NCBI RefSeq assembly: GCF_024521635.1
Contig: NW_026250409.1
Coordinates: 434,001-498,000 of the forward strand
Direction: 5' to 3'
Source: Tricharina praecox
Lineage: Eukaryota
Length of the DNA: 64,000 nt
Shown: in pieces, positions 33,420 to 35,777 of the stretch
How the letters are laid out: each line of letters opens with the position of its first letter
Position numbering within the stretch: position 1 is the first letter of the stretch
Notes under the pieces: model-generated
Database searches by the model: none
Told to the model about the DNA's origin: nothing
The model's input: the letters and a program-made list of their open reading frames with translations, nothing else
Position numbers and translations under genes: made by a program

Positions 33420-33779
33420 CCTCAGCGGGTGGTGCGATGAGGGTGGGTGGGAGGTTGGTGACGCCGTGGTGGAGGAGGGAGGCTGCGGGGGCGCACCACC
33501 GGATGGGTATATGTAAGCTGGTGAAGTTTGGTTGGTTGGATGATTGTGTATAACTGCCTGCTGCGCTCGAGATGGTCAGGGGGTTACGAGGAAGGCGGCC
33601 AACCAACCAACCAGCCAACCAGCTCGCTCGGCGGCGACACAGCGGATGCGGCTTGGCGTGACGCCAACCACAACTCGGCTGGCTGGCTGGCAGCTTTAGA
33701 TACGGCCTTCAATTCAACTCTCACAACAACAAACCCGCCTTACGAACCCCACCACCTCTCTCTACATATTCACAGCAAG

Positions 33780-34503
33780 ATGGGTTACAACTACTACACA
33801 GGGCTGACGACGGTGACTCTCGCCGTCGTAGTTGTCGGAGCCTGTATGTCGCGTCATCGCCCCTTAGACCAGCCTCCAGCCAGACAGCTAATGGATCGGG
33901 AACAGATATGCTCTTCAACGACGAAGGCGAGGACTTCAACGTCGGACGGTTCCTCGAGGAAACATCACCGTACACGTGGGCGACACTGGGAATCGCATTA
34001 TGTATTGGCCTCTCGGTCGCCGGCGCTGCATGGGGAATCTTCGTGACCGGCTCGTCCATCATCGGCGGAGGAGTACGCGCGCCTCGCATCAGGACGAAGA
34101 ACTTGATCTCCATTATTTTCTGTGAAGTTGTGGCCATCTACGGTGTCATCATGAGTGCGTCCCGTCGTTCCCCGTCCCACTCCACCCATCAGCTAACACT
34201 ACAATAGGCATCGTGTACTCAGCTAAGCTCGGCAACGTCTCCGGGGCGGATCTCTACGCGCCACAGAACTTCTACACGGGCTATGCGTTGTTCTGGGGAG
34301 GTCTCACGGTCGGAATGTGCAACATGGTGTGCGGTATCGCTGTGGGTATCACCGGCAGTTCCGCTGCCCTGGCCGACGCGAGTGATCCGGCGCTGTTCGT
34401 CAAGATCTTGATCATCGAGATCTTCGGGAGTGTGTTGGGCCTGTTCGGTCTCATCATTGGACTGCTGTTGGCGGGTAAGGCGGAAGACTTCAAGGCGTAC
34501 TAA
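33780..34503 (+). CDS. VMA16: V-ATPase proteolipid subunit c'' (3 exons)
   Basis: [46 protein letters not shown]. Introns 33844-33905 and 34155-34207. Confidence 0.96.
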
Positions 34504-34802
34504 GTGCGGAAATCGGGGTGGCTGGGACCGGAGAAGTGAGTGATCTCGATGCATGCGTGCTGGGGGGAGGAAGAGGGGGAGGGGAGAGAAGATAATCGCA
34601 CATGGTAATGGTGACGAGTAGGAAGGGGAATGTATGCCACGGTGCGGTTGGGCTTGCAGGCGTTACTATTGCTATTGCTGCTATGGTCTTTTGTGTATTA
34701 TGATTCCGGTTTGTTTCCTATGTCGCTGTCACTGTTTGCTTTGTGTATATCCAGAACTAGACGCAACCTTCTTCTCGCATCCATAGGCTAGTTATTCGTG
34801 CT

Positions 34803-35524
34803 CTAAAAGAACTTGACACCCATCTCGTCGCCAGTCCCGAACACTTGTGCCGACCCCCGCTTCACTAGTACCCCCAGGGCCTTCTTTAACACTGTCTCCT
34901 CTATCCCGTGGAACTCTGCCAGCCCAACCACTGTCAGCACTCCCCCTACAAACCACCCAGGGAAGAAACACACCTTGATCCAGCGTCAAATCGCCATGCG
35001 CGATTTCATACAGCGTAAGAACAGTGCCCTTCTGCCCCGTCGCATCGATCTGCGCATCCCATTAGCCCCTCCCACTCCAAACCTCGCCCTACCCGGCTCC
35101 CATGCACTCACCCAATCATATATAACATTCCCCCACTCTTCATGTCGTCTCCACAGCACGATGACGGTAGTCTTCTCCTTATCCGCCCACTCGGCGCCTC
35201 CCTCGGCCACCATGCCCTCAAGGACCTCCATAGCATCTTTAAGTTTCAGCTGGCGTCCGAGGGTAGCGTTACGGAACAGCTCCGTGTCGAGAGCGTCGGC
35301 TACGTGCAGCCGCCATAGTTTATGTGTGCGGCAGTACAGGTGGATAAACGAGATCCAGCCGGTGCGTTGCGCGGTCCAGGTTGCCGCGTTGGGCTGTGTG
35401 CGGGATGCGTGTTAGCTTGGTGCGAGACGGGAGATGAGGCGGCTTATCTAGTGAAGAAGGGAGGGAAGGAGTATAGTGGCGGGAAGATCGTGGTTGTGCT
35501 CGCGGGGCTCATGGCCGTCGACAT
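34803..35524 (-). CDS. VPS25: ESCRT-II subunit Vps25 (4 exons; intron 1 is AT-AC)
   Basis: Spliced product MSTAMSPAS..FPPLYSFPPFFTRQPN..W..I..YCR..LFRN..WRR.EEW..IYDWI..TG...TVLTLYEI..EFHG..L.KAL..L..G.AQVF..GVKFF. Introns 35447-35398 (AT-AC), 35111-35050 and 34973-34916. Confidence 0.93.
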
Positions 35525-35777
35525 CGTAAGTGTAGTGGGGAAGCTTGGTGGGTGCCTGGGAGCTACCTATGGGCGGATGTAACCGCACTAGATAGCAGGC
35601 GTGGCGCGCGTGGAGGATGCACGACTATCACTCTGCGCCAAACAAACGTAGTTTCACGAGATGGCAAGGAGAGATGGCACCACAGAGAAAATATATCGCA
35701 GCTCTATGCTAAAAATCGTCTCATATATTCGTACAAATCCCATGAAAGAAACCTCTTCACACCCTCTAATCCCACGT

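Follow-up and report, generated by a model that had tools for sequence, protein, structure and literature searches.

Intron 1 of the VPS25 gene of Tricharina praecox begins with AT and ends with AC, and it is very probably a constitutive, obligatory intron of the U2-dependent (type II) AT-AC class, removed by the major spliceosome. Both termini are present in the genomic DNA, the exact junction left by their removal is present in RNA-derived contigs, and the AT/AC pair is conserved in relatives together with a CTAAC box. That the major spliceosome is responsible is what we infer from the signals of the intron and from two published surveys.

Structure of the VPS25 gene and reading frame of intron 1

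The window, that is, the whole stretch of 64,000 nucleotides that was analysed, carries VPS25 on its minus strand. The gene has the following parts (a slash marks the border between exon and intron):

35448..35524, minus strand: exon 1; ATG at 35524-35522; end ...TTC CCT CCC TTC TTC ACT AG, phase 2
35442..35450, minus strand: 5' splice site TAG/ATAAGC of intron 1; matches the U2-type AT-AC consensus at 5/6
35398..35447, minus strand: intron 1, 50 nt, AT...AC; phase 2, within the Arg codon AG/A
35411..35416, minus strand: putative branch-site box GCTAAC of intron 1; 14 nt separate the branch A from the 3' end of the intron
35398..35399, minus strand: 3' terminal AC of intron 1 (...CCCGCAC); kept in 9/9 AT-AC loci
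35394..35396, minus strand: CAG of exon 2, coding for the Gln of QPN; contains the AG that the initial annotation took for a 'competing' acceptor, out of frame
35112..35397, minus strand: exon 2 (ESCRT-II domain); starts A CAG CCC AAC; covered by contigs of runs X3, X4 and X5
35050..35111, minus strand: intron 2, 62 nt, GT-AG (GTGAGT...GCTAAT...CAG); joint in contigs of X3, X4 and X5
34974..35049, minus strand: exon 3; from contig cover and the spliced product
34916..34973, minus strand: intron 3, 58 nt, GT-AG (GTGTGT...GCTGAC...CAG); joint in contigs of X3, X4 and X5
34803..34915, minus strand: exon 4, including the stop codon TAG at 34805-34803; from the spliced product

The sequence details of intron 1 given in the initial annotation (termini, branch box, frame and stop) all proved correct on re-reading. 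With ATAAGC following exon 1, the unspliced frame reads AGA TAA and therefore stops at once, and between the FPPFFT codons and this TAA there is neither a GT nor a GC. Excision of 35447-35398 keeps the frame, ACT AG being joined to A CAG CCC, and gives the conserved FPPFFT-R-QPN. Joining the AT donor to the CAG located 4 nt downstream shifts the frame, with a stop after 56 residues.

The four exons make a CDS of 552 nt and a product of 183 aa, identical at 183/183 residues to the public T. praecox protein (P0153; XP_051341126.1 / KAI5854684.1), from which it follows that the public model already uses the AT-AC junction and that the window belongs to this species or to a strain nearly identical to it. 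Exon 2 alone (35396-35112) matches the Pfam ESCRT-II profile PF05871 from profile position 11 onwards, with E = 1.1e-27 and 97.4 bits for a cut-off of 27. When homologues were searched for with exon 2, none of the 31 candidates fell into the 'longer' length class, and five fell into the 'near' class. The pattern QP[NVHSTA] was found in 114 of 152 Vps25 homologues, most of which have FPPFFT-x-QPN, or a near variant, just before QP; in the product of the window this motif, FPPFFT-x-QPN, is contiguous only once 35447-35398 is removed.

The neighbours of VPS25 are a glutathione synthetase gene, which lies upstream in the same orientation, and a V-ATPase proteolipid (ATP-synt_C) gene, located downstream at 33662-34503 on the plus strand and converging on VPS25.

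The junction in RNA-derived contigs and the termini in DNA contigs

The DNA of the window was found in soil-metagenome runs and in three small runs of other studies, and the contigs were compared with the window over 34650-35750. No run is on record as RNA, and the labels RNA for X4 and X5 and DNA for X3 are only guesses. The comparison concerns assembled contigs and not raw reads, so that rare isoforms, intron retention and expression level are invisible in it.

We found the joint of intron 1, 35396->35447, a skip of 50 nt, in one contig of X3 (study P2) and in one of X4 (study P3). The sides of these contigs at the joint are 101 and 69 letters long, with 0 letters other than those of the window, and their cover of exon 1 extends to 35547 (X3) and 35515 (X4). 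One base of the joint is ambiguous: it can be placed as AT...AC (35447-35398) or, if shifted by one, as TA...CA, and none of the relatives examined resolves this 1-nt ambiguity. Introns 2 and 3 (35050-35111 and 34916-34973; CT..AC on the plus strand, hence GT..AG on that of the gene) are missing as well, both from these two contigs and from one of X5 (study P4). Apart from the three missing introns, the X3 and X4 contigs have the same sequence as the genome, and we therefore take them to derive from spliced RNA. The X5 contig, whose cover stops at 35397, neither supports nor contradicts the joint of intron 1; the stretch 35575-35685, uncovered in X3 to X5, carries no meaning.

The junction ...ttcactag^acagcccaac..., which the initial annotation had predicted, is thus carried by contigs of two runs, each of a different study, and since these RNA-derived contigs carry exactly what was predicted, chance is no longer in question. 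The genomic termini, for which an independent check had been proposed, have the same letters in a DNA contig of another metagenome sample (X2). This contig covers 35287-35636, has intron 1 unchanged and carries just two differences from the window, at 35511 and 35570, so that an assembly error confined to one data set does not account for the termini.

The X4 and X5 contigs with spliced VPS25 continue past 34650 toward the V-ATPase proteolipid gene. This run-on could correspond to overlapping 3' ends of convergent transcripts, or to a mere assembly join.

AT-AC introns at the same site in relatives

A scan of metagenome contigs gave 69 VPS25 loci; 57 were examined, in which the match begins at residue 1 or 2 of the query, and the 12 others, matching only later parts of the query, were set aside. 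Eight loci (L001-L003 and L043-L047, with five distinct intron sequences) read AG/AT...CTAAC...AC/A at the same codon position. Their introns are 52-60 nt long, with diverged interiors, an upstream exon ending in AG, and CTAAC 14-15 nt from the 3' end. This box is invariant in all nine AT-AC loci (the window and these eight) and in the GT-AG relative L004. The initial annotation had suggested comparing the two termini among related fungi, and AT and AC are kept as a pair in these eight further loci. The donors agree with /ATAAGT at 6/6 positions in L001 and L002, at 5/6 in L003 and at 3/6 in L043-L047.

Two of these groups leave no room for a canonical solution: there is no GT anywhere within the intron of L043-L047, and no AG follows the AC in L001 and L002, which have CAA there. 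In addition, L006, a cDNA-like contig of 1049 nt that is 83-93% identical to L043/L046, lacks all four of their introns. Its junction reads ...ACAAG^ACAG..., which is the same junction in a third related organism.

Some of these loci have features of their own. The AT-AC donor of L043 (1441-1500), as well as that of L044, L045 and L047, is ATATCATT, which agrees with the U12 consensus at 7/8 positions, and that of L046 is ATATCATC, with 6/8; beside these U12-like donors, the branch box of L043-L047 is a U2-like ACTAAC. An extra short intron is present after ...NRNLNRR in L043 (1644-1697) and L046 (1641-1693), at a place inside the continuous exon 2 of the window, and it is absent from L006.

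Other intron states and gene models at the site

Three loci that are Wilcoxina-like, L004, L005 and L060 (82% identical to Wilcoxina mikolae P0158 over exon 2), read ACT CGT CAA/GTACGC...TCTAAC...CATTAG/CCC AAC. Their intron is GT-AG, both ends lie 4 nt downstream, and the Gln codon has moved into exon 1 (L004:1440-1500). In more distant fungi (L023, L024, L050 and L052-L057), a GT-AG intron in phase 2 interrupts the Thr codon of FPPFFT, 3 nt upstream of the AT-AC site. Three intron positions therefore occur within 7 nt across lineages, and in 34 of the 57 loci the site is without an intron.

Four called proteins start with ..HT/QP.. and lack FPPFFT: P0007, P0164 (Sphaerosporella brunnea, partial), P0001 and P0006. 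The first of these is the Geopyxis carbonaria protein KAI5800124.1, a public model of 199 aa that reads ...NYRHT/QPN. Since Thr is encoded by ACN, the ..HT/QP.. models appear, as far as their protein sequences tell, to read through the 3' end of an intron that ends in AC. The Geopyxis carbonaria model thus looks mis-modelled at its N-terminus, most likely because the intron ends in AC. The initial annotation had stated that predictors restricted to GT-AG would mis-model this gene; this is not the case for the public T. praecox protein, which is correct, and the statement seems to hold for Geopyxis carbonaria and for the three other called proteins without FPPFFT.

Two further kinds of models were noticed. 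P0156, P0160, P0159 and P0009 (among them Morchella snyderi, M. sextelata and Sphaerosporella brunnea) have FPPFFT-R-Y-PN and not R-Q-PN, and the position of this Y is precisely the junction codon; the models may be at fault around a non-canonical intron, or the substitution may be real. P0011, a Pyronema-like called protein, starts with LLS/QPN, and if its Ser codon is AGY, the intron of that lineage would end here in AG.

Evolutionary history of the site

A tree of Vps25, a single gene, was made from 23 sequences, without the junction codon. In it, the Pyronemataceae rows group together (support 88/82), and within them (Pyronema,(L004,Wilcoxina)) stands beside ((two Sphaerosporella rows),(window, L001, L003)). 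The lineage of L006 groups with Pezizaceae (91/85), and Geopyxis with P0006. According to the NCBI taxonomy, Tricharina (Pezizales), Wilcoxina and Sphaerosporella are Pyronemataceae, and Geopyxis belongs to Tarzettaceae. The AT-AC form, or its AC trace, is thus present in at least three separated lineages, and the GT-AG form shifted by 4 nt is nested among them. This distribution favours AT-AC as the older state within Pezizales, which the Wilcoxina-like lineage would have replaced with a GT-AG intron shifted 4 nt downstream; a tree that unites all AT-AC/AC rows and excludes L004 is not rejected (AU p = 0.0635, with 12 rows of known state and outgroups).

The alignment of the two forms places the intronic TAA GC of the window opposite the exonic CAA of L004, followed by its donor GT, and the exonic CAG of the window opposite the acceptor TAG of L004. 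With a T-to-C change at +2, the AT donor would be lost and TAA would become a codon for Gln, and the GC...AG pair then available 4 nt further on would yield the same protein. This suggests a short path from AT-AC to the shifted GT-AG intron.

Which spliceosome removes the intron

The donor of the window, ATAAGC, matches /ATAAGT at 5/6 positions; written over eight positions, ATAAGCCG, it agrees with the U12 consensus /ATATCCTT at only 4/8, and does not qualify as a U12 donor. Nor does the branch box AAGCTAAC qualify as a U12 branch site, with 4/8 to TCCTTAAC. The ordinary fungal branch consensus is CTRAC/TACTAAC. The initial annotation had described these signals as U2-like and not U12-like, and we agree with this description, given the donor scores and the CTAAC branch box. 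The U2-type AT-AC introns are described as having a strong /ATAAGT consensus (PMC5029451), and the passage of Sheth et al. (2006, PMC1557818) that defines them relies on a donor that fits the U2-type consensus save at +1. The VPS25 intron has AT and AC in the genome, is removed precisely in the RNA-derived contigs, has a donor that fits except at +1, and has a U2-type branch box at a usable distance from its 3' end. Within the 64-kb window, Rfam gave 0 matches, a result that is uninformative on the minor snRNA genes of the genome.

A mechanism can be proposed as follows. U1 would recognise TAG/AUAAGC, which fits the usual donor at all intron positions but +1 and +6, and the GCUAAC box would pair with U2. 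The presumed branching adenosine, 14 nt before the 3' end, would attack the 5' A. At the second step, the A in first position would pair with the C in last position, in place of the G-G contact, and this putative A-C contact of the first and last intron bases would explain that the AC is used and the AG 4 nt downstream is not. Removal of the 50 nt would then join ACT AG to A CAG CCC and restore FPPFFT-R-QPN. The part of this scheme in which A...C replaces G...G is suggested by a yeast experiment cited in PMC5029451, and otherwise by general knowledge of splicing.

Several other processes should be considered. The intron might be of the U12-type, Pezizales having kept a minor spliceosome or a remnant of it: the AT-AC termini and a branch site 14-15 nt from the 3' end would be in keeping with this, as would the donors of L043-L047, close as they are to /ATATCCTT (7/8 or 6/8 for ATATCATT/ATATCATC). 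However, the donors of the window, of L001/L002 and of L003 reach only 4/8, and they break the rule, given in the relevant part of PMC2846911, that the U12 donor RTATCCTT tolerates only C-to-T at +5 or +6. Moreover, every branch box is CTAAC, 4/8 to TCCTTAAC, and two surveys report for Ascomycota, in the parts cited here, no convincing minor introns and no minor snRNAs (PMC10639083, PMC11347168). We therefore consider a U12-type intron very unlikely. The U12-like donors of L043-L047, with 3/6 to /ATAAGT, are not accounted for by the U2 reading. As ATATCATT is found at the same site as the ATAAGC of the window, in a lineage near Pezizaceae, these donors provide a lead for the survival of minor-type introns: some Pezizales might have an activity like that of the minor spliceosome, or else U12-like donors might be read by their major spliceosome, and the VPS25 intron might be a surviving minor-type intron in Dikarya, to which we would give only a slight chance.

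Could the junction be formed without any spliceosome, or not be formed at all? An endonuclease and a ligase, for example, excise introns of the HAC1 type, AT-AC termini are not a normal substrate of the spliceosome, and such a non-spliceosomal route was left open by Gould et al. for an AT-AC isoform of yeast RPL30 (PMC5029451, part cited). Nevertheless, the conserved AG/ATAAG donor context, the invariant CTAAC 14-15 nt from the 3' end and a length of 50-60 nt, as is typical for fungal introns, seen over nine loci, are spliceosomal signals, and the homologous intron of L004 is now an ordinary GT-AG intron with the same CTAAC box, which makes this route hardly credible. An artefact deserves mention in that non-canonical junctions from single data sets are often artefacts; it could consist in a template switch of the reverse transcriptase, in wrongly assembled termini or in a copy of the gene that is dead. 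Here, however, the termini are identical in the DNA contig of a second sample and AT/AC is present in eight loci of other organisms; the junction is found in contigs of two studies, with a joint at which only one base is shared; and the product, with its frame preserved, is identical to the public protein. An artefact is thus extremely improbable. A different proposal concerns the reason for which AT-AC is maintained. According to the initial annotation, competition with the CAG 4 nt downstream could give an out-of-frame, non-productive isoform and so set the level of Vps25, and hence of ESCRT-II. An AG is indeed found 4 nt past the AC in the window, in L003 and in L043-L047 (AC/ACAG), and its use would shift the frame. 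On the other hand, L001 and L002 have AC/ACAA, so that the AG is absent from two of the nine AT-AC loci, and where present it is merely the end of the Gln codon CAG. Yeast genetics also counts against competition, an A at intron position +1 disfavouring an AG acceptor. Finally, the X3 and X4 contigs contain the productive junction only and no alternative one, though rare variants are dropped from contigs. We tend to discard this regulatory role as unlikely, and retain removal of a constitutive intron by the major spliceosome as the preferred reading.

What is new

Knowledge of the U2-type AT-AC class goes back to the 1990s, and the public T. praecox gene model already implies the junction, so that nothing is overturned by the present analysis. 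What is new is the confirmation at the RNA level, by RNA-derived contigs, of an obligatory AT-AC intron in a gene of Dikarya, as well as its retention in several lineages of Pezizales, with a relative in which the intron has a slid, GT-AG form. A literature search for Vps25 together with AT-AC returned no paper; supplementary lists of fungal AT-AC introns may contain the VPS25 intron.

The case is of interest in three respects. It concerns a conserved single-copy gene in which an AT-AC intron is naturally present, fixed and obligatory, within a phylum reported to have the major spliceosome only. The loci form a comparative series, in which the A...C pair is kept in several relatives while the interior changes and one relative has most likely moved to GT-AG, with both ends shifted by 4 nt, and this series is relevant both to the contact between first and last intron bases and to intron sliding. 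Lastly, VPS25 is a gene that predictors restricted to GT-AG get wrong, as in Geopyxis carbonaria and several called proteins.

Comparison with known systems

U2-dependent AT-AC introns have been shown for human SCN4A and SCN5A, the genome-wide counts of the U2-type being 15 in human, 6 in mouse and 3 in fly, and they have been hypothesised for xylanase genes of filamentous fungi (Sheth et al. 2006, PMC1557818, parts cited). AT-AC introns that are not of the U12-type are also listed for species without minor snRNAs (PMC2846911), and AT-AC is rare in the fungal annotations considered in PMC7072748. The VPS25 intron resembles those of SCN4A and SCN5A by its AT/AC termini, its U2-type donor (/ATAAGC here), the lack of U12 boxes, and the conservation of the termini between species. 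It differs in that the need for major snRNAs was shown by experiment for the sodium-channel introns as described in the source, whereas the VPS25 intron, 50 nt long and with a fungal CTAAC box, is assigned to the class from its sequence; its host lineage, furthermore, is reported to lack the minor spliceosome altogether.

In S. cerevisiae, an engineered AT-AC intron is spliced, the G1-to-A mutation being suppressed when C replaces the last G (Parker and Siliciano 1993, as cited in PMC5029451). The same logic of pairing between first and last bases would apply to VPS25, also in an ascomycete reported to have the major spliceosome only; unlike this laboratory-made intron, that of VPS25 is natural, fixed, obligatory for the protein and present in several lineages. 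The only endogenous AT-AC case reported for S. cerevisiae in the part cited of Gould et al. (2016, PMC5029451) is an isoform of RPL30. Its AT-AC junction is natural, like that of VPS25, and its host is likewise an ascomycete, in which the minor spliceosome is reported to be missing. However, this isoform represents about 1-2% of transcripts, its atypical donor is unlike /ATAAGT, and its mechanism was left open, whereas in VPS25 no route other than the AT-AC junction is productive, this junction is the form found in the assembled contigs, and its donor is near the U2-type AT-AC consensus.

With U12-type AT-AC introns, the VPS25 intron shares the terminal dinucleotides and the short distance from the branch to the 3' end. 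It differs from them by its donor (4/8) and its branch box (4/8), and by a host phylum reported, in the survey parts cited above, to have no minor snRNAs.

A conversion of an AT-AC intron into a U2 GT-AG intron by a shift of splice sites has been described between Trichinella and C. elegans (Bartschat and Samuelsson 2010, PMC2846911, part cited). The GT-AG introns of L004, L005 and L060 are similar, in that both ends have moved and the protein is unchanged. In the nematode case, the starting intron was U12-type and the shift was of three codons, whereas in VPS25 both states are U2-like, the shift is 4 nt, and the Gln codon changes sides, from CAG in exon 2 in the one state to CAA in exon 1 in the other.
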